The notes under the pieces: generated by a model | What the model saw: only the letters and a program-made list of their open reading frames with translations | Database searches by the model: none | What the model was told of the DNA's origin: nothing | Shown here: piece after piece, positions 2,493 through 64,000 of the stretch | Position numbering within the stretch: position 1 is the first letter of the stretch | Layout: the number at the start of each line of letters is the position of its first letter | Origin: Pasteurellaceae bacterium Orientalotternb1 | Lineage (GTDB): Bacteria > Pseudomonadota > Gammaproteobacteria > Enterobacterales > Pasteurellaceae | Assembly: GCA_011455275.1 (NCBI GenBank) | Contig: CP015028.1 | Location: forward strand, 592,911-656,910 | Reading direction: 5' to 3' | Length of the DNA stretch: 64,000 bases | Program-made: the position numbers and the translations under genes

Positions 2493-3470
2493 ATGTCCCG
2501 CAATATTTTCGAAAAACGCATTCAAATTAAGCCTTATGAGTATCCTGAATTGCTTGAGTTTAAAGATGCAATTCGCCATTCTTACTGGTTACATACCGAA
2601 TTCAACTTCACAGGTGATATTCAAGATTATCGAACCAATATCAACGATCACGAACGCCATGTGTTAACCCGCACGATGTTGGCAATTTCGCAAGTGGAAG
2701 TGAATGTGAAGCGTTTCTGGGGTGATTTGTATAAATATTTCCCAAAACCTGAAATTGATGATGTGGGCGGTACATTTGCAGAGTCAGAAGTTCGCCATAA
2801 AGATGCTTACTCATTTCTCCTTGAAAAGTTAGGCTTAAATGAGATGTTCTCGCAGATTAAAGAAATCAAGCCATTGATGAAACGGATTGAATATATGGAA
2901 GATTTTATGCGAGAGAAAGATGAAGGCAAAGGGCAGTTTGTATTGTCGCTAGTGCTTTTCTCGCTTTTCGTTGAGCATATTTCACTGTTTGGACAATTTC
3001 TAGTGATGATGTCGTTTAATAAACATCGCAACTTGTTCAAAGGTATTTCAAATGCGGTGGAAGCAACTTCCAAAGAAGAAGAAATCCACGGGCGTTTTGG
3101 GATTGCGTTATATGAAATTTTGCGTGATGAACATAGCGAATTGTTCACACCAGAATTCTATACAGAGCTGAAAGTGTTAGCTGATCAAGCTCTTGAAGCT
3201 GAACGTGGTATTTTGGATTGGATTTTTGAAGAAGGCGATTTGAGCTTTATTAGCCGTAAAACTGTAGAAAACTATATTATGAGCCGTTATAACAACTCGC
3301 TCACTACATTAGGTTTAGAACCGCCTTACGATATTGATCCAGATCTGTTGAAAGAAACCGAATGGTTTGATATTGAAATTATTTCAACCAAAGAAACGGA
3401 CTTCTTTAACAAGCGTAGTACTGATTACAGTAAAAAAATGAAGCAGATTACTGCTGACGACTTATTCTAA
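2493..3470 (+). CDS. nrdB: Class I ribonucleotide reductase small (radical-generating) subunit
   Basis: Ferritin-like R2 fold. Metal ligands E...EVRH and E...EEEIH are present, and the radical Tyr is at EVRHKDAY (E/H/Y spacing as in E. coli R2 E115/H118/Y122). The stop lies 2 bp before the alpha subunit start. Confidence 0.85.
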   Translation: MSRNIFEKRIQIKPYEYPELLEFKDAIRHSYWLHTEFNFTGDIQDYRTNINDHERHVLTRTMLAISQVEVNVKRFWGDLYKYFPKPEIDDVGGTFAESEVRHKDAYSFLLEKLGLNEMFSQIKEIKPLMKRIEYMEDFMREKDEGKGQFVLSLVLFSLFVEHISLFGQFLVMMSFNKHRNLFKGISNAVEATSKEEEIHGRFGIALYEILRDEHSELFTPEFYTELKVLADQALEAERGILDWIFEEGDLSFISRKTVENYIMSRYNNSLTTLGLEPPYDIDPDLLKETEWFDIEIISTKETDFFNKRSTDYSKKMKQITADDLF

Positions 3471-3472
3471 CT

Positions 3473-5209
3473 TTGACTTACATAGAACCGACACTGCCGA
3501 TGACTTACTCTAACTCTTATTACCAACCCAAGTTATTTGAACTTGGCTACACCGATGAAAAACGTCCTGATTTTGCTTGGCTAAATGACGACAGCAAACT
3601 GTTCTTACAGCGTGGTTACTTACTTGAAGGCACAACAGCATTAGAGCGGATCCGTTTTATTGCCGAACACGCTGAACGTAAACTTGGTATCGAAGGCTAT
3701 GCAGACAAGTTCTATTACTATATGGGACGTGGTTATTTTTCGCTTTCTTCGCCAATTTGGTCAAACTTCGGGTTAGATCGTGGTTTGCCAATTTCATGCT
3801 TTGGGAGTTACATCGGCGATTCCATTCATGAAATTATGGTGACGACGGCAGAAGTCGGTATGATGAGTAAGATTGGTGGTGGTACTTCGGCGTATTTTGG
3901 TGATATTCGCCCACGTGGTTCGGCGATCAAAAATAACGGCAAGTCAGATGGTTCTTTCAACTTTAGTAAACTATTCGATACCGTTATTGATGTGATTTCT
4001 CAAGGTACTTCTCGCAAAGGGCAGTTCGCAGGCTATATTGACATTGAACATGGCGATATTGATGAGTGGTTAGATATTCACACCGAGGGTAACCCAATTC
4101 AGTTGATGTACTACGGCGTATGCGTAGGACACGATTGGTTAGAGTCAATGAAAGCGGGCGACCCCTACAAGCGGCAACTTTGGGCAAAAATTTTGCAACG
4201 CAAAACGGAAACAGGGATTCCATACCTGTTCTTTAAAGACAATGCCAATGCAGGTCGCCCAGATGTTTATAAAGACAAAAATATGACTGTACACGCCTCA
4301 AACTTGTGTACGGAAATTATGTTGCCGTCTAACGAAGACGAAAGTTTTGTGTGCTGTTTATCTTCAATGAACTTGCTCTATTTTGATGAGTGGAAAGATA
4401 CCGATGCACCTGAAGTGTTAACTTACTTCTTAGATGTGGTGATGTCGGAATTTATTGAAAAAAGTGCTGAAATTCCATTCTTGGATCGGGCAAATCGCTT
4501 TGCGGTTCGTCATCGTGCATTAGGTTTAGGTGTGTTGGGTTGGCACAGCTATTTACAGGCGAATAACATTGCTTTTGATAGCTTTGAAGCGATGCAGAAG
4601 AACAATCTGATTTTCAAAACGTTACAAGAAAAAACTTTGAAAGCTTCGCAAGAGCTAGCCCAACGTTTTGGAGAGCCTGAATTGTTGAAAGGTTACGGTC
4701 GTCGTAATACCACTTTAATGAGTATCGCACCGACTAAATCCAGTAGTTTTATTTTAGGTAGCGTATCGCCATCGGTAGAGCCATTTAAATCGAATTACTA
4801 TGTCAAAGATTTAGCGAAGATCAAAACTGTTTATAAAAACCCATTCTTGGAAAAATTACTTCAAGAAAAAGGCTTAGATACAGAAGAAATTTGGGAAAGT
4901 ATTTTGCTGAGTGATGGTTCTGTCCAGCACTTAAAACAACTAACAGACCACGAAAAAGAAGTGTTCAAAACCTTCTCTGAAATCAGCCAGTTAAGTGTGA
5001 TCCAACAAGCGGCACAACGTCAAAAATACATTGACCAAGGGCAAAGTATCAACATTATGGTGCACCCGGCAACGCCAGCACGTGATTTAAACCAACTTTA
5101 TCTCACGGCGGAAGAGCTAGGTATTAAATCAATTTATTACCAATATTCAATGAGTGCCGCACAGGTATTTAACCGTAACTTGTTAAGCTGTAGTAGTTGT
5201 GAAGGCTAA
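3473..5209 (+). CDS. nrdA: Class I ribonucleotide reductase catalytic subunit, short form without N-terminal ATP cone
   Basis: 578 aa with the catalytic SNLCTEI motif and a C-terminal CSSCEG redox cysteine pair. There is no ATP-cone (VxKRDG) region. Confidence 0.85.
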   Translation: MTYIEPTLPMTYSNSYYQPKLFELGYTDEKRPDFAWLNDDSKLFLQRGYLLEGTTALERIRFIAEHAERKLGIEGYADKFYYYMGRGYFSLSSPIWSNFGLDRGLPISCFGSYIGDSIHEIMVTTAEVGMMSKIGGGTSAYFGDIRPRGSAIKNNGKSDGSFNFSKLFDTVIDVISQGTSRKGQFAGYIDIEHGDIDEWLDIHTEGNPIQLMYYGVCVGHDWLESMKAGDPYKRQLWAKILQRKTETGIPYLFFKDNANAGRPDVYKDKNMTVHASNLCTEIMLPSNEDESFVCCLSSMNLLYFDEWKDTDAPEVLTYFLDVVMSEFIEKSAEIPFLDRANRFAVRHRALGLGVLGWHSYLQANNIAFDSFEAMQKNNLIFKTLQEKTLKASQELAQRFGEPELLKGYGRRNTTLMSIAPTKSSSFILGSVSPSVEPFKSNYYVKDLAKIKTVYKNPFLEKLLQEKGLDTEEIWESILLSDGSVQHLKQLTDHEKEVFKTFSEISQLSVIQQAAQRQKYIDQGQSINIMVHPATPARDLNQLYLTAEELGIKSIYYQYSMSAAQVFNRNLLSCSSCEG

Positions 5210-5255: not shown

Positions 5256-6206
5256 TTAGAATCTAACTAATGCTGAACCCCAAGTCCAGCCGCCGCCGAA
5301 GGCTTCCAGTAGCAGTAGCTGACCACGTTGAATGCGTCCATCACGCACAGCTTCATCTAATGCAACAGGAATAGTCGCAGCACTCGTGTTGCCGTAGCGA
5401 TCAAGCGTAATCACTACTTGAGATAAATCCATTTCTAGTTTATCGGCAGTGGCGGTGATAATGCGTAAATTTGCTTGATGTGGCACAAGCCAATCAATCG
5501 CCGACTTATCTAATTGATTTTCCGATAAAGTTTCTTCCACAACATTGGCTAATTCACGCACTGCCAGTTTGAACGTTGCATTGCCTTGCATTTCAATGTA
5601 GCCTGACTTTTCCACGCCACGTTTTTCATTGGTGAGCAACAACCCATTGGTTTTATCTGGTGAAGAGTGTAAATGGGTGGAGATCACACCTTGTTCTTCG
5701 CTGGCTTCTAAAATGACCGCTCCAGCTCCGTCACCGAATAGCACCACGGTGCTTCGGTCAGTTTCATCTAATTTACGAGAGTTCAAATCTGAACCAATCA
5801 CTAACGCCTTTTTCACTTTACCTGAACGAATAAATTGATCGGCAACGCTTAACGCATAGACAAATCCTGTGCAAGCGGCGGCAACATCAAACGCGATGGC
5901 ATCTTCAATACCGAGCAATCCTTGCACTTGGCAGGCGGCACTTGGATAGGCGTGAGAATTGCTGGTGGTGCCGACAATCACTAAGTCGATAGATTGCGGA
6001 TCGCAAGCGGTCTGTTCAAAGCATTTTTTTGCCGCTTCAAAACCCATTGTTGCCACCGTCTCATCAGCTGCCGCTATACGGCGTTCCCTAATGCCAGAAC
6101 GCGTCACAATCCATTCATCGGAAGTATCTACCATTTTTTCAAGATCCGCATTAGTACGGATTTGCGATGGCATATAACTTCCCGTCGCTAAAATTTTACT
6201 GTACAT
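5256..6206 (-). CDS. fabH: 3-oxoacyl-ACP synthase III
   Basis: 316 aa. [14 protein letters not shown]-terminus, active-site Cys region (AAACTGF), His/Asn motifs, and GFGGG at the C-terminus. Confidence 0.9.
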
Positions 6207-6311
6207 AATTTATTCTCAATAATTTTCATTGGGGCGTATTATAACGCAAAAGCAAGCTATTGCGAAAAGCAAGGCAAGATTTGCAAAAAATTTGGCGGAA
6301 CTGACCGCTTG

Positions 6312-21891: not shown

Positions 21892-21897
21892 AATATA

Positions 21898-22037
21898 ATT
21901 CTGCCCCGCTTTAGCGGGGGAAGTGGTTGAGCGGAGCGAAACCGAAGGGGGAAAATTGCAAAATTTTTTGAAAATCTGACCGCTTGTTCCCCCTACCCTG
22001 CCTACGGCAGTACCTCCCCCGCAAGCGGGGGCAGAAT
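21898..22037. repeat. MITE-like element family A copy 1 (ATTCTGCCCCGCTTTAGCGGGGGAAG ... internal USS ... CCCCCGCAAGCGGGGGCAGAAT)
   Basis: The terminal inverted repeats are the same as those flanking the DUF559 gene at 63500..63978. The right half matches the long 54-bp TIR. Lies between malE and malF. Confidence 0.7.
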
Positions 22038-22106: not shown

Positions 22107-23663
22107 ATGTTATCCATGACCCAACTAACACTCTCGCCCGCTCAAGTTTGGAGCAAAAGAGCTTTTGTGGGGCTGCTCTATTTTATTTCGTTTTATCTTG
22201 TTTTCACTATTTATCTGCAAGGTGAAATTCTTTTCGCATTGTTAGCGTTGGTTGTAGTGACGTCGGGTATTTATATTTTTAGCAATCAAAAAACTTACCG
22301 CTGGCGTTATCTCTACCCAGGTGTTGCTGCAATTGGCATTTTTGTAGTGTTTCCATTACTTTGTACGGTAGTGATTGCCTTTACCAATTACAGCGGTACG
22401 AACCAATTAAGCTATGAACAGGTGCTTAAACAGCTGCAAAGCCAACGTTATTCTGCAGGTGAGAAGTTTGAGTTCAAACTGTTTGATGCAGGTAATGGGC
22501 AATACCAATTAGCATTTAGTAATCCAAAATCACAAAAAAATTACCTTTCTGAACCGCTTGCAGTAGAAAATTTGGCAGGTGATGTGGCGGTGAAAGAGAG
22601 TGAATCTCTGCCAACTTCTGCGGTTGCACCACTAAAAGTGATTACCCAGAACCGTACCAAATTACAAGGCATTACCGTTGGGTTGCCAACGGGCGAAAGC
22701 TTATCAATGAGTGGGTTACGACAGTTTGCGGAACTCAAACCACGCTATAAATTTGAAGATAGCCTAGAAGAACTCACCAATATGGAAACGGGCAAAGTTT
22801 ACCGCCCGAATAATGATATCGGCTTCTTCCAAGAGATTGATTCTCAAGGTAATTTTGTTGGTGAACGTTTAGAGCCTGGTTATACCGTGGTGACTGGCTG
22901 GCAAAATTTTGTGAAAATCGTAACTAATAAAGGTGTGCAGGGGCCGTTCATTAAAATCTTTATCTGGACGGTGACATTCGCCTTTTTAACGGTGATTTTC
23001 ACTACGCTACTTGGTATGATTTTTGCCTCCTTAGTGCAATGGGAACCGTTGAAAGGCAAAGCCACTTACCGCTTGTTACTGATTTTGCCGTATGCTGTTC
23101 CTGGCTTTATCTCTATTTTGGTATTCAAAGGTTTGTTCAACCAAAGTTTCGGGGAAATCAACCTAATCTTAAATAACTTGTTTGGTATCCGTCCTGAGTG
23201 GTTTAACGATCCGACCTTAGCGAAAATGATGTTGTTGATTGTTAATACGTGGTTGGGATATCCGTATATGATGATCGTTTGTATGGGCTTGCTCAAGGCA
23301 ATTCCACAAGACTTATATGAAGCTTCGGCGATTGACGGTGCGACCGTTTGGCAAAACTTCACCCGCATTACAATGCCATTATTGATTAAACCATTAATGC
23401 CGTTGATGATCGCCAGTTTCGCCTTTAACTTTAACAATTTCGTATTGATTCAATTATTAACCGTGGGTGGACCGAATATGGTTGGCACCACTACACCAGC
23501 AGGACATACTGACTTGTTAGTGAGCTATACCTACCGCATTGCCTTTGAAGGTAGCGGTACTCAAGATTTCGGCTTAGCCGCAGCGATTTCAGTGATTATC
23601 TTCTTACTGGTCAGTGCGTTAGCCTTGTTCCAAATCCGTTTGACGAAGTTGTCGAATGAGTAA
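22107..23663 (+). CDS. malF: Maltose ABC transporter permease MalF
   Basis: 518 aa from the ATG at 22107. Has the large periplasmic P2 loop and the EAA motif region (EASAIDGATVWQNFTRITMPLL). Confidence 0.9.
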   Translation: MLSMTQLTLSPAQVWSKRAFVGLLYFISFYLVFTIYLQGEILFALLALVVVTSGIYIFSNQKTYRWRYLYPGVAAIGIFVVFPLLCTVVIAFTNYSGTNQLSYEQVLKQLQSQRYSAGEKFEFKLFDAGNGQYQLAFSNPKSQKNYLSEPLAVENLAGDVAVKESESLPTSAVAPLKVITQNRTKLQGITVGLPTGESLSMSGLRQFAELKPRYKFEDSLEELTNMETGKVYRPNNDIGFFQEIDSQGNFVGERLEPGYTVVTGWQNFVKIVTNKGVQGPFIKIFIWTVTFAFLTVIFTTLLGMIFASLVQWEPLKGKATYRLLLILPYAVPGFISILVFKGLFNQSFGEINLILNNLFGIRPEWFNDPTLAKMMLLIVNTWLGYPYMMIVCMGLLKAIPQDLYEASAIDGATVWQNFTRITMPLLIKPLMPLMIASFAFNFNNFVLIQLLTVGGPNMVGTTTPAGHTDLLVSYTYRIAFEGSGTQDFGLAAAISVIIFLLVSALALFQIRLTKLSNE

Positions 23664-23673
23664 TTAGATCATA

Positions 23674-23806
23674 ATTCTGCCCCCGCTTTGCGGAGAAGTA
23701 CCTTGCGAAGCAGGAGGCAGACAAGCGGTCAGATTAAAGTAAAATTTTACAAATGCCCCCTTCGGCTCGTTTCACTCGCCACTTCCCCCGCAAGCGGGGG
23801 CAGAAT
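23674..23806. repeat. MITE-like element family A copy 2 (malF|malG intergenic)
   Basis: ATTCTGCCCCCGCTTTGCGGAGAAGTACC ... GACAAGCGGTCAGATTAAAGTAAAATTTTACAAA ... CCACTTCCCCCGCAAGCGGGGGCAGAAT. Confidence 0.7.
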
Positions 23807-23826
23807 GAAATAAAAAGGATACTACT

Positions 23827-24716
23827 ATGGCAATTGTCCAACCCAAATCAATGAAAGTGCGGTTATTTGCCACCCACTTTTTTCTTATCACCTTTTGTGT
23901 GTTGATTATGTTCCCATTATTTATGATTTTGGGTATTTCCCTTCGCCCTGGGAACTTAGCCTTAGGGGAACTGATCCCTAGCCAAATTTCCTTTGAACAC
24001 TGGAAATTAGCTCTCGGTTTTAGCGTCACCAACCCTGACGGTACTGTGACCCCCCACCATTTCCTGTTTTATTATGGCTGTGGAATTCAGTAAAAGTAGC
24101 AGGTATCACTGCGTCGATTATTCTAGTTTTATCCACTACAGCCGCCTACGCTTTTGCTCGTTTCCGTTTTGCGGGCAAAAAAGTGTTAATGCAGAGTATG
24201 TTGATTTTCCAAATGTTCCCTGCGGTACTTTCCTTAGTGGCGTTATATGCGTTGTTTGACCGCTTGAGCGATTATATTCCGTTCTTGGGCTTAAATACTC
24301 ACGGCGGTGTGATTTTCGCTTACTTGGGAGGGATTGCTATGCACGTTTGGACGATCAAAGGTTATTTTGAGACGATCGACAACTCTCTTGAAGAAGCAGC
24401 AGCCCTAGACGGTGCAACCCCGTGGCAGACTTTCCGTTTGATTTTATTACCACTTTCCGTACCGATTTTGGCGGTAGTGTTTATTCTTGCTTTCATCGCC
24501 GCTATCATCGAAGTGCCAGTCGCATCGCTCTTATTGCGTGATGTGGATAACTACACCCTAGCCGTGGGAATGCAGCAATATCTCCACCCACAAAACTACC
24601 TGTGGGGTGACTTCGCTGCCGCTGCGATTCTTTCTGCAATCCCAATCACCGTAGTGTTTATCATCGCACAACGCTGGCTAGTTGGCGGTTTAACCGCTGG
24701 TGGGGTGAAGGGCTAA
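23827..24716 (+). pseudogene. malG: malG (maltose ABC permease) interrupted by a -1 frameshift in a C6 tract
   Basis: N-terminal 74 codons match MalG ([14 protein letters not shown]...DGTVTP). The frame is lost at CCCCCC (24050-24055), where an in-frame MalG needs C7 ([12 protein letters not shown]). The remainder of MalG (…[41 protein letters not shown]… to GGVKG) continues in the -1 frame to 24716. Confidence 0.7.
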
Positions 24717-24724
24717 AAGAACAG

Positions 24725-24862
24725 ATTCTGCCCCCGCTTTGCGGGGGAAGTACCTTGCGAAGCAAGGGATTGGGGGAGCAAGCGGTCAGATTAAAGTAAA
24801 ATTTTACAAATGCCCCCTTCGGCTCGTTTCACTCGCCACCCCCCCGCAAGCGGGGGCAGAAT
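24725..24862. repeat. MITE-like element family A copy 3 (malG|malQ intergenic)
   Basis: Near-identical to copy 2, including the internal extended USS. Confidence 0.7.
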
Positions 24863-24901
24863 TAAACTATTTTGTATTAAATCATATAAAGAGCAGTAAC
24901 A

Positions 24902-62507: not shown

Positions 62508-63488
62508 ATGACACAATTTACCCTTGACCAAATTTCCGCCCTTGCCAAAAATGATATGCAAGCGGTCGATACCGCTATTCTTGCCCAACTCAATTCTGAT
62601 GTGGTGCTGATCAATCAGCTCGGGCATTATATTATCAGTGGTGGCGGCAAGCGAATTCGCCCGTTGATTGCCGTACTTGCGGCAAGAGCCTTGGGCTATC
62701 AAGGGCAGGAACACATCACCTGTGCAGCCTTTGTCGAGTTTATTCATACGGCAACGTTGCTACACGATGACGTGGTGGACGAGTCCGATATGCGGCGGGG
62801 TAAGGAAACAGCGAATGCTCGTTTTGGCAATGCGGCAAGCGTGTTGGTTGGCGATTTTATCTACACCCGAGCCTTCCAAATGATGACCAGCCTTAACTCG
62901 TTGCCTGTGTTGAAAGTGATGTCGGACGCCACCAACGTGATTGCCGAAGGTGAAGTCCAACAGCTGATGAATATCAACGACCCTGACACCACCGAAGAGA
63001 GCTATATGCAGGTGATTTACAGCAAAACCGCCCGCTTGTTTGAAGCCGCCACCCAATGTGCGGCGTTGGTGGCGAATGCGAGCGAAGCGGAAGTGGTAGC
63101 CTTGCAGAATTATGGTCGCTATCTCGGCACGGCGTTCCAGTTGGTTGACGATATTTTAGATTACAGTGCCAATGCGGAGAAACTTGGCAAAAATATCGGC
63201 GATGATTTAGCCGAAGGCAAGCCAACGTTACCGCTACTGCACGCAATGCGAAACGGCACCCCGCAACAAGCCGCCCTAATTCGTGAAGCGATTGAGCAAG
63301 GCGGAAAACGTGATTCGCTTGATGAAATTTTAGCGATTATGGCAGAGCAAAAATCTCTAGATTACACGATGCAACGAGCCAAACAAGAAGCTCAAAAAGC
63401 CGTTGATGCCATTGCAATGTTGCCAGAGAGTGAGTTTAAGACAGCGTTGACATCGTTGGCGTATTTGTCGGTGGATAGAAATTACTAG
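62508..63488 (+). CDS. ispB: Octaprenyl-diphosphate synthase
   Basis: 326 aa with the two aspartate-rich motifs DDVVDESDMRRG and DDILD. Confidence 0.9.
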   Translation: MTQFTLDQISALAKNDMQAVDTAILAQLNSDVVLINQLGHYIISGGGKRIRPLIAVLAARALGYQGQEHITCAAFVEFIHTATLLHDDVVDESDMRRGKETANARFGNAASVLVGDFIYTRAFQMMTSLNSLPVLKVMSDATNVIAEGEVQQLMNINDPDTTEESYMQVIYSKTARLFEAATQCAALVANASEAEVVALQNYGRYLGTAFQLVDDILDYSANAEKLGKNIGDDLAEGKPTLPLLHAMRNGTPQQAALIREAIEQGGKRDSLDEILAIMAEQKSLDYTMQRAKQEAQKAVDAIAMLPESEFKTALTSLAYLSVDRNY

Positions 63489-63499
63489 TTTGAACTAAA

Positions 63500-63978
63500 A
63501 TTCTGCCCCCGCTTGCGGGGGAAGTACCGCCGAAGGCGGGGTAGGGGGTAAAATGAAAAATTTCAGAAAAGCTGAAACAGAAACCCTAATCCATTACCAA
63601 AAATTTCTACGCAAAAATATGACTTTTGAAGAAGTTCTGTTATGGCAGGAAATTCGTAAAGGTCGTTTAAGTCGCTTTCGAATACGGCGACAAGCCATTG
63701 TTGCAGGATACATTGTTGATTTTGCTTGCTTGCCTGCAAAGCTGATTATTGAAGTGGACGGTGAACAGCATTTTGATCCCGAAATACTTAAATATGATGA
63801 AAATCGAACACTAACTTTAAACCAATTAGGATTTCAAGTACTACGGTTTACCAATAGCGAAATTAAAACACAACTAGATAACGTATTAGATGAGATCTAT
63901 TTCCATCTGAATAATAAAACCTAATTTTGCCCCCTACCCCGCCTTCGGTGGTACTTCCCCCGCAAGCGGGGGCAGAAT
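63500..63978 (+). mobile_element. Compact TIR-bounded cassette: 53-bp TIR-L / DUF559 nuclease gene / 54-bp TIR-R
   Basis: TIR-L (63500..63552) ATTCTGCCCCCGCTTGCGGGGGAAGTACCGCCGAAGGCGGGGTAGGGGGTAAA is the near-perfect reverse complement of TIR-R (63925..63978) TTTTGCCCCCTACCCCGCCTTCGGTGGTACTTCCCCCGCAAGCGGGGGCAGAAT. The ORF fills the interval exactly from start to stop codon. Confidence 0.75.
63553..63924 (+). CDS. DUF559 (PF04480) Vsr-like / PD-(D/E)xK endonuclease-fold protein
   Basis: 123 aa with a conserved core YIVDFACLPAKLIIEVDGEQH (D...ExD...H) typical of DUF559. Low GC. Confidence 0.75.
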   Translation: MKNFRKAETETLIHYQKFLRKNMTFEEVLLWQEIRKGRLSRFRIRRQAIVAGYIVDFACLPAKLIIEVDGEQHFDPEILKYDENRTLTLNQLGFQVLRFTNSEIKTQLDNVLDEIYFHLNNKT

Positions 63979-64000
63979 TTTCTTTATTAGCAAATTATAA

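Follow-up and report, generated by a model that had tools for sequence, protein, structure and literature searches.

A DUF559 nuclease gene framed by inverted, structured repeat units downstream of ispB in a Pasteurellaceae genome: a candidate nuclease-repeat partnership

Several described systems join a small enzyme to short repeats or carry one into conserved genes. RAYTs, the transposases associated with repetitive extragenic palindromes (REPs), are HUH/Y1 enzymes of the IS200/IS605 type, and the inverted hairpin repeats that flank their genes are also dispersed as intergenic pairs, the REPINs. Homing endonucleases of the EDxHD type, such as I-Bth0305I, act on a unique gene sequence and lie within introns or inteins or stand free beside their target gene, and Vsr is a T:G mismatch endonuclease that serves a cytosine methyltransferase. 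Rickettsia palindromic elements (RPEs) are found within coding regions, and pairs of autonomous elements and miniature inverted-repeat transposable elements (MITEs), Correia elements among them, combine terminal inverted repeats with short gene-less versions. Here, we describe a gene-and-repeat module of 485 bp at positions 63497-63981, within the last ~500 bases of a 64-kb stretch of DNA (the window) from Pasteurellaceae bacterium Orientalotternb1, which is close to Frederiksenia canicola, and we compare it with these systems.

Our best explanation, which taken as a whole we consider about evenly balanced between right and wrong, treats this segment as one module, a single-copy DUF559 gene between two inverted copies of the lineage's repeat unit. 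In it, gene and repeats would form a partnership of the RAYT/REPIN type built on a Vsr-like/EDxHD-type PD-(D/E)xK nuclease, and the elements would spread probably by break-and-repair rather than by transposition.

The gene-and-repeat module and its nuclease

A repeat search of the window returned a single inverted pair, with arms of 58 nt that are 97% complementary (2 mismatches) and lie 369 nt apart (Table 1). The earlier note on this DNA had described terminal inverted repeats of 53 and 54 bp, with about 3 mismatches, bounding the open reading frame (ORF) at its ATG and stop codon; the boundaries are confirmed, and the arms are slightly longer and cleaner than was claimed. The left arm terminates within the ATG (A-T, 63553), and the right arm opens at the final base of the TAA (63924). 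The ORF lies 65 nt downstream of ispB (62508-63488). From outside to inside, the arms consist of AAAATTCTG, a first hairpin, the linker AAGT, a second hairpin, AGGGGG, and TAAA(ATG), so that the nested hairpins attributed to each repeat in that note are present as described. In the left arm, hairpin 1 is CCCCCGC-TT-GCGGGGG (63506-63521) and hairpin 2, after the linker, is ACCGCC-GAAG-GCGGGGT (63526-63542). The G-run AGGGGG (63543-63548) mirrors the purine arm of hairpin 1 and stands at Shine-Dalgarno distance from the DUF559 ATG, 5-10 nt before it. The right arm has its C-run at 63930-63935, hairpin 1 at 63957-63972, and the terminal sequence CAGAATTTT.

Sub-patterns of the arms of 23 and 22 nt gave 5 and 3 matches, respectively, in the window (<=3 mismatches) compared with 0.00 expected from 100 shuffles, which excludes chance as the source of the repeat occurrences. 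All repeat copies within the window are intergenic. On the + strand, the right arm presents hairpin 1 followed by a T-rich tail and looks terminator-like by eye; a terminator and promoter scan scored nothing at the repeat units, the right unit included. Searches of Rfam at permissive thresholds returned only noise for the arms and for the gene-less pairs described below, and no intron match. The GC content of the DUF559 ORF is 34%, compared with 43% for the window and 50% for ispB, and this low value relative to ispB suggests a foreign origin of the gene.

The 123-amino-acid protein matches Pfam DUF559 (PF04480) with E=1.1e-35 over profile positions 6-108 of 109, and in a library profile search the only families it matched were DUF559 and MTES_1575. 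Assignment as an orthologue of YcjD was considered and rejected, the NCBIfam PRK09767 match of 81.5 bits falling under the equivalog cut-off of 218. Residues D56, E67, D69, H73, and D82 do not vary across 30 aligned homologues, and the AlphaFold model is confident (predicted local distance difference test score, 90.7). In a profile search of the PDB, the best match was NGO0050 of N. gonorrhoeae (3HRL; E=3.5e-35), with the catalytic domain of I-Bth0305I (3R3P; E=2.4e-6) and PvuRts1I next, and Foldseek ranked 3HRL first, then I-Bth0305I (E=1.4e-4; TM 0.60/0.74), then Vsr (1CW0). Judged by alignment and model, the protein is a Vsr-like/EDxHD-type PD-(D/E)xK nuclease whose fold and catalytic residues are intact, as the earlier note had supposed; its nearest characterised relative is the homing endonuclease I-Bth0305I rather than Vsr. 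The family sits on the same superfamily branch as Vsr (Pfam clan; group 58 in PMC3424549) and is very large, with 67,868 clusters at 50% identity (E<=1e-3), or about 28,000 at E<=1e-10. The public record calls the 123-amino-acid protein a 'DNA methyltransferase'; a methyltransferase domain is absent, and the name is an annotation error.

Repeat units and DUF559 genes across bacteria

A pattern scan with hairpin 1 plus linker, covering one genome per species, found at least 120 stretches, almost all from Alphaproteobacteria and with one Pasteurellaceae locus among the matches listed. Nearly all of the 120 listed stretches carry the full unit YYBCCCCCGC-TT-GCGGGGGARG-T, variable hairpin, G(A/G/T)(A/T/G)GGGGG, which among the matches listed was seen in Caulobacterales, Hyphomonadaceae, Bradyrhizobium, Luteimonas, Chromatiaceae, Ruminococcus, Dialister, Flavobacteriaceae, and others. 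The unit has four elements. A C-run/G-run hairpin is followed by a short linker, then by a second hairpin whose sequence varies and which is usually capped by C-GNA-G, and finally by a G-run in mirror image to the purine arm of the first hairpin. Units start with YYBCCCCC and have no conserved GTAG/CGTC at the 5' foot; GTAG is found only inside GGGGTAGGGGG in some copies, with GAAG, GATG, or GGAG in others.

Both distal parts of the unit show signs of constrained folding. Among 94 distinct second hairpins from units with the hairpin 1 pattern, 88 fold better than their own shuffles, and the motif C-GNA-G is present in 73, compared with 8 in the shuffled set. GNA loops closed by C-G are a hallmark of unusually stable DNA mini-hairpins, e.g., d(GCGAAGC). 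The distal G-run repeats the purine arm of hairpin 1 in mirror order and is not its complement (63506-63548 in the window and 108 units in the listed stretches, L011-L130), and the two runs covary: GGGGGAAG goes with GAAGGGGG, GATGGGGG, or GTAGGGGG, and GGGGGAGG with GGAGGGGG or GGTGGGGG, with 19/32 and 60/76 units, respectively, in the expected class. Here G stands opposite G and A/T opposite A in antiparallel register, the pattern needed by an intramolecular purine-motif triplex, which we infer the unit could form.

A DUF559 gene was present in 6/120 of the listed stretches found by this pattern, in most of them with a unit within about 100 nt of the gene. The converse sample consisted of 80 diverse metagenomic DUF559 loci, in which a generic unit (pyrimidine-arm hairpin plus mirror purine run) was sought. 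Unit density was 6.7 per kb within 200 nt of the DUF559 gene (<=200 nt) and 0.21 per kb more than 600 nt away, a 32-fold difference. Units were found on at least one side of the gene in 63/69 loci and on both sides in 51/69, and a flanking inverted-repeat score of >=14 was reached by 41/67 DUF559 loci versus 0/108 displaced controls. The two flanks were mutually inverted in 15/16 unambiguous loci. Two polarities occur, that of the window (hairpin outside, extra run inside) and its reverse, and the repeat sequence is lineage-specific, e.g., CCCCTCCCC-AAAA-GGGAGGGG. An independent survey gives a hint in the same direction, with DUF559 genes 14-fold enriched among those associated with inverted repeats (PMC9881135). 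The earlier note had taken the module for a candidate minimal selfish element; the pairing of nuclease and repeat does look like that of a selfish element, but it is no local oddity, as the architecture is family-wide. We found no paper in the open-access literature linking the DUF559 family to repeats, in line with that note's suggestion of a possibly undescribed mobilisation mechanism, and an earlier description is possible.

Escherichia coli ycjD has only a degenerate unit downstream and is hence a poor model of the intact module. In E. coli K-12 (L215 4030-4430, - strand), the region downstream of ycjD contains a duplicated fragment of the gene's 3' end and then the degenerate unit CCCCTCGCCCCTCTGGGGAGAGGGTTAGGGTGAGGGG.

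Long ORFs contain the DUF559 domain together with its flanking units, in frame, in at least 12 of the 80 metagenomic loci. Pfam places DUF559 nested in IleRS, LeuRS, ValRS, RecG, MetH, and a UvrD-like helicase (hosts are listed in Table 1), and the cases come mostly from low-GC contigs of Bacteroidota-like look. The in-frame units read as short Pro/Gly-rich linkers (SPLNPPQGD ... SPPVGDLGG), and further units that lack the gene are translated in frame at other places in these proteins, e.g., LPSPRGEGLGV in LeuRS. No intein motifs were found in the flanking translated repeats of the in-frame cases. Comparatively, this nesting is the strongest sign that gene and repeats move together into many targets.

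Table 1. Features of the module, gene-less pairs in the window, and metagenomic loci with DUF559 in frame
Feature	Position or locus	Strand	Basis or context
Left repeat unit (left arm)	63497..63554	+	Inverted-repeat search, pattern scans, folding
DUF559 ORF, 123 amino acids plus stop	63553..63924	+	ORF list, Pfam, alignment, structure model
Right repeat unit	63924..63981	-	Reverse complement of left unit, 2 mismatches
E1, gene-less pair, 141 bp	21897..22037	.	malE-malF gap
E2, gene-less pair, 134 bp	23673..23806	.	malF-malG gap
E3, gene-less pair, 139 bp	24725..24863	.	malG-malQ gap; unit types as in E2
In-frame host, LeuRS	L151, L161, L164, L168, L195		
In-frame host, IleRS	L178, L207		
In-frame host, ValRS	L184		
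In-frame host, RecG	L183		
In-frame host, MetH	L148, L202		
In-frame host, UvrD-like	L143, L154		
In-frame host, Gmk	L169		
In-frame host, MeaB/IcmF-like	L208		

Gene-less pairs, close relatives, and uptake signals

Three gaps of the mal operon hold gene-less pairs, E1, E2, and E3, where the earlier note had counted three gene-less derivatives with the same ends. All three are inverted unit pairs that share the termini AATTCTGCCCCC...GGGGGCAGAAT with the DUF559 arms and fold into long hairpins (z about -5). In their second hairpins they are unlike the units flanking the DUF559 gene, and the two inverted units of E1 carry different second hairpins. Only the right unit of E1 is close to a DUF559 arm (92% identical over 49 nt); E2 has its outer 26-30 nt in common with the arms. 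There is a weak alignment between the centre of E1 and the first 27 nt of the DUF559-element interior, with a score reached by 19/500 shuffles, and alignment against shuffles gave no similarity of the E2 and E3 centres to the gene-bearing interior. In our explanation, the gene-less pairs belong to the same repeat population as the DUF559 arms. Between E2 and E3, malG is split into three overlapping ORFs (23827-24093, 24074-24259, and 24183-24716; two frameshifts), reflecting either a pseudogene or sequencing errors.

The autonomous/non-autonomous pair proposed in the earlier note survives as a discrete unit with gene-less counterparts and presence/absence variation, but not as a strict transposon with its MITEs. 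The transposon/MITE label is not supported, as there are no target-site duplications, no strand-transfer enzyme, and just one weak sign of derivation by deletion, the similarity limited to E1. To our knowledge, a lone PD-(D/E)xK nuclease has no strand-transfer chemistry.

The module also follows ispB in a metagenomic contig (L211), whose DUF559 protein is 77% identical to that of the window, and a more distant Pasteurellaceae metagenome-assembled genome (L221) has the order ispB-DUF559-queH. The modules of L211 and L221 have identical termini, AAAATTCTGCCCCC...GGGGGCAGAATTTT. In F. canicola isolates and three further assemblies (L216-L220), the ispB-queH gap contains neither DUF559 nor a unit and is filled by an unrelated 210-nt sequence (L216 4982-5191). 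The ispB gene of L211 is 97.8% identical in DNA to that of F. canicola, with synonymous divergence (dS) of 0.08, so that the module is present or absent within one species or between sister species; the presence/absence polymorphism on which the earlier note had staked its proposal was thus found. The F. canicola gap sequence includes another palindrome of ~100 nt (GAATTTG..GGAAAAATTT / AAATTTTTCC..CAAATTC). Within it, the short-read assemblies L217-L219 all end at a single point, a sign that it may be a multi-copy repeat of another kind.

Among the three carriers, the DUF559 gene has nonsynonymous divergence (dN) of 0.07-0.19 and dS from 1.2 to saturation, comparable to the ispB dS of 0.9-1.6, giving dN/dS of about 0.06-0.12. 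On these rates, the gene has long been inherited vertically at ispB and is under purifying selection. The element did not arrive recently and resembles a domesticated RAYT more than an active transposase. In the orthologous copies at ispB, hairpin 1 and the G-run are invariant and hairpin 2 is wholly different in each, which points to putative exchange of hairpin 2 by recombination with other copies rather than to point mutation. Three independent assemblies end within the right-hand unit just past the DUF559 stop (L211 5042, L212 2078, and L213 1807), which is what a unit present in several copies in those genomes would produce. Neither here nor in L221, with ispB and queH as neighbours, is a methyltransferase gene adjacent to DUF559; an unlinked partner is possible.

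Outside this clade, the closest homologue (65% identity) is that of Glaesserella parasuis, at a different locus between pilA and pilB. Inverted units with the same hairpin 1 flank it in arrays (L001-L010 4700-5800) that have a 106-nt period and a copy number that varies by strain, and the pilA-gene and gene-pilB gaps vary by up to about 230 nt.

The mal gaps differ among relatives as well. In a close relative with 96% identical MalF (L222), E1 is absent and a GTAG-type REP occupies that gap (2252-2413). The same genome has an orthologue of E2 with many hairpin-destroying substitutions (L222 3965-4137 versus window 23661-23830), its 12-nt and 24-nt flanks being identical; either the copy in L222 is decaying fast or conversion keeps that of the window uniform. 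In Pasteurellaceae bacterium RH1A (L223), three mal gaps (3257-3503, 5049-5162, and 6047-6300) hold other palindromic families, namely one REPIN-like GTAG pair and two hairpin-plus-mirror-run families with the architecture of the module's unit. The mal gaps seem to be recurrent landing sites for palindromes.

The uptake signal sequence (USS) of this genome is the 9-nt ACAAGCGGT, of the Actinobacillus type, with 30 copies in 64 kb compared with about 0.5 expected. One full signal lies in the centre of E1 (21979), another just beyond E1 (22046), and a third in the centre of E2 (23721), and the centre of E3 holds GCAAGCGGT, one base from a full signal. The gene-flanking arms do not contain the full 9-nt signal. 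They hold only the heptamer CAAGCGG, as written in the right arm and on the complementary strand of the left arm; the earlier note was correct about the heptamer, but its description of the termini as USS-like does not hold. Because the sequence of hairpin 1 is the same in Caulobacterales, Bradyrhizobium, Ruminococcus, and others outside the Pasteurellaceae, hairpin 1 is not shaped by Pasteurellaceae uptake signals. On these grounds, together with the arms lacking a full USS, we rejected USS-driven spread.

Competing explanations and comparison with known systems

In the mechanism that we propose, repeat units would extrude as hairpins when single-stranded or under supercoiling, and the mirror G-run may in addition clasp hairpin 1. 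The nuclease would recognise and cut the folded unit, and the break would be repaired by homologous recombination from another repeat copy, which would homogenise and spread the pairs. When a gene-bearing copy served as the template, the gene would be copied into a pair, amounting to homing into a repeated target. The gene would by now have settled in this lineage as a resident passed on vertically over the long term, and would probably be transcribed together with ispB, with the G-run serving as its ribosome-binding site. The anatomy, the family-wide link of gene and repeats, the inverted flanks, the presence/absence variation, the purifying selection, the intact catalytic residues, and the structural kinship with a homing endonuclease are observed; cleavage of the unit by the protein, repair-driven spread, and the triplex are the parts of this proposal that we infer.

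Several points weigh against it. That DUF559 proteins cleave the repeats is a deduction from comparison, not from biochemistry or genetics. In the one functional study, a DUF559 protein of Caulobacter, VsrA, triggers an SOS response when the unlinked cytosine methyltransferase ScmA is deleted, and it is read as a mismatch-repair nuclease tied to DNA damage (PMC12907096). The folding advantage of a single unit over shuffles is modest (z about -2); its pairings are ambiguous, since the C-run can pair with any G-run, and we used comparative evidence instead. No target-site duplications, and no shared or duplicated flanking bases, were found at the four elements of the window, and no clean empty site defines an insertion event, the F. 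canicola gap being unrelated and the gene-less pair in L221/L216 too diverged to align. Long residence under strong purifying selection is unlike the classical homing endonuclease cycle. In the 10-kb G. parasuis loci, units were seen only beside the gene, with no dispersed population demonstrated, and the tracking of protein similarity by repeat similarity (1/500 in a Mantel-type permutation) is confounded by shared ancestry.

Alternatively, the DUF559 gene could be a passenger in a hot spot, with the palindromic pairs forming an independent family moved by some other enzyme or by recombination, the gene having landed in the centre of one pair because palindromes of this sort are favoured for insertion or recombination, and the nuclease acting on something else. 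The different palindromic families in the mal gaps of L222 and L223 suggest that such gaps attract palindromes in general, the second hairpins of the gene-less pairs differ, two of the three pairs have no similarity to the gene-bearing interior, and target-site duplications are absent; REPs that serve as preferred insertion sites for some insertion sequences offer a parallel. We consider this unlikely, however, as it leaves unexplained why DUF559 genes across phyla are framed in inverted orientation by repeats of one architecture and unrelated sequence, and why gene and repeats occur together in frame in many housekeeping genes, while neighbouring GTAG-type REPs are not associated with the DUF559 gene. 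It is also conceivable, though less probable again, that the protein is an ordinary Vsr-like T:G mismatch endonuclease serving a methyltransferase encoded elsewhere, and that the units are REP-like terminators or mRNA stabilisers, as in the classical malE-malF REP. The Caulobacter SOS phenotype, the purifying selection and vertical inheritance of the gene, the GC hairpin and T-rich tail of the right unit, and the occupation of operon gaps, where REPs are known to tune expression, would all fit. Fold and sequence are nonetheless nearer to I-Bth0305I than to Vsr, and no methyltransferase gene is adjacent here or in L221. The gene is missing from close relatives and its low GC content relative to ispB suggests a foreign origin, and neither the 32-fold local enrichment nor the inverted orientation nor the in-frame co-insertions would be expected of a housekeeping gene.

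The units might instead insulate or switch a toxic gene. They could hold the ribosome-binding G-run in structure and end transcription, or they could let RecA invert the 369-bp segment, turning the gene on or off with respect to ispB read-through. The position of the G-run ahead of the ATG, where it is able to pair with the C-runs, and arms of 58 nt, which are long enough for homologous inversion, are compatible with such control, and 'DUF559 domain-containing protein' is 14-fold enriched among predicted targets of programmed inversion, that is, inverted-repeat-associated genes (PMC9881135). We regard this as the most improbable of the explanations considered: no invertase gene was seen adjacent, the right unit was not scored by the terminator scan, and control of a single gene would not account for gene-less pairs or for translated in-frame units. 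All three alternatives are judged insufficient because none explains both the family-wide oriented framing and the in-frame co-insertions.

If the nuclease does work on the repeats that frame it, a very large domain of unknown function would gain a role, and RAYTs would be joined by a second enzyme partner of bacterial palindromic repeats, one with a different mechanism. This would also account for the DUF559 domains nested in tRNA synthetases and repair helicases, and would provide a natural example of a tiny nuclease guided by the structure of DNA, possibly a triplex, rather than by its sequence, of interest for genome stability and as a tool. The gaps of the mal operon and the ispB-queH gap of this genome would then be actively remodelled by these elements. 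A bolder generalisation, which we put forward tentatively and hold to be doubtful, is that DUF559 genes and their framing repeats constitute an unrecognised and very widespread class of selfish or domesticated element. Here, a minimal nuclease would read a folded repeat, made of a triplex-clasped hairpin and a GNA-capped hairpin, and would copy pairs and itself by break-induced copying, both between genes and in frame within essential ones, aminoacyl-tRNA synthetases among them.

Compared with known systems, the units that are in frame and apparently translated in essential proteins of the metagenomic loci, with or without a nuclease gene, recall RPEs and coding-region REPs; RPEs, however, carry no gene and have no associated enzyme, and the copies in the window are all intergenic. 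Terminal inverted repeats, short gene-less versions, and insertion polymorphism are shared with MITE/autonomous pairs such as Correia elements, whereas here target-site duplications and a recognised transposase are missing and the gene-less pairs cannot be read clearly as products of internal deletion. Vsr and Caulobacter VsrA belong to the same superfamily branch, and VsrA, a DUF559 protein, is experimentally tied to DNA damage. Unlike vsr, the DUF559 gene is not beside a cytosine methyltransferase; its product matches Vsr less well in structure than it does I-Bth0305I, and framing by repeats is no known feature of vsr.

The likeness to the EDxHD homing endonuclease I-Bth0305I extends to sequence, fold, and the E..D..H..D catalytic constellation. 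As with these enzymes, the DUF559 gene sits in the centre of a sequence that also exists without it, and in other lineages the domain lies in frame in conserved housekeeping genes, as intein-borne homing endonucleases do. In contrast to them, it has no intron or intein, and the gene is intergenic, next to ispB and, in relatives, queH. The 123-amino-acid protein consists of a catalytic core of ~105 residues plus two N-terminal helices, with no separate DNA-binding domain, and its putative target is a multi-copy structured repeat, not a unique gene sequence; its long retention under purifying selection is a further difference.

RAYT/REPIN systems offer the parallel on which our explanation is modelled. 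Both feature a single-copy, vertically inherited gene under purifying selection, flanked by inverted hairpin repeats that are also dispersed as intergenic pairs, and in both target-site duplications are absent and the repeat sequence is lineage-specific while its architecture is conserved. The enzyme here, however, is a Vsr-like PD-(D/E)xK nuclease and not an HUH/Y1 transposase, and a hydrolytic nuclease alone is incapable of the covalent cut-and-paste chemistry of Y1 enzymes. The units likewise have a hairpin, a variable hairpin, and a mirror purine run in place of the 5' GTAG/CGTC tag. Relative to the known partnerships of repeat and enzyme, then, the mechanism is a proposal, and what is new is a different class of enzyme joined to a different repeat architecture.

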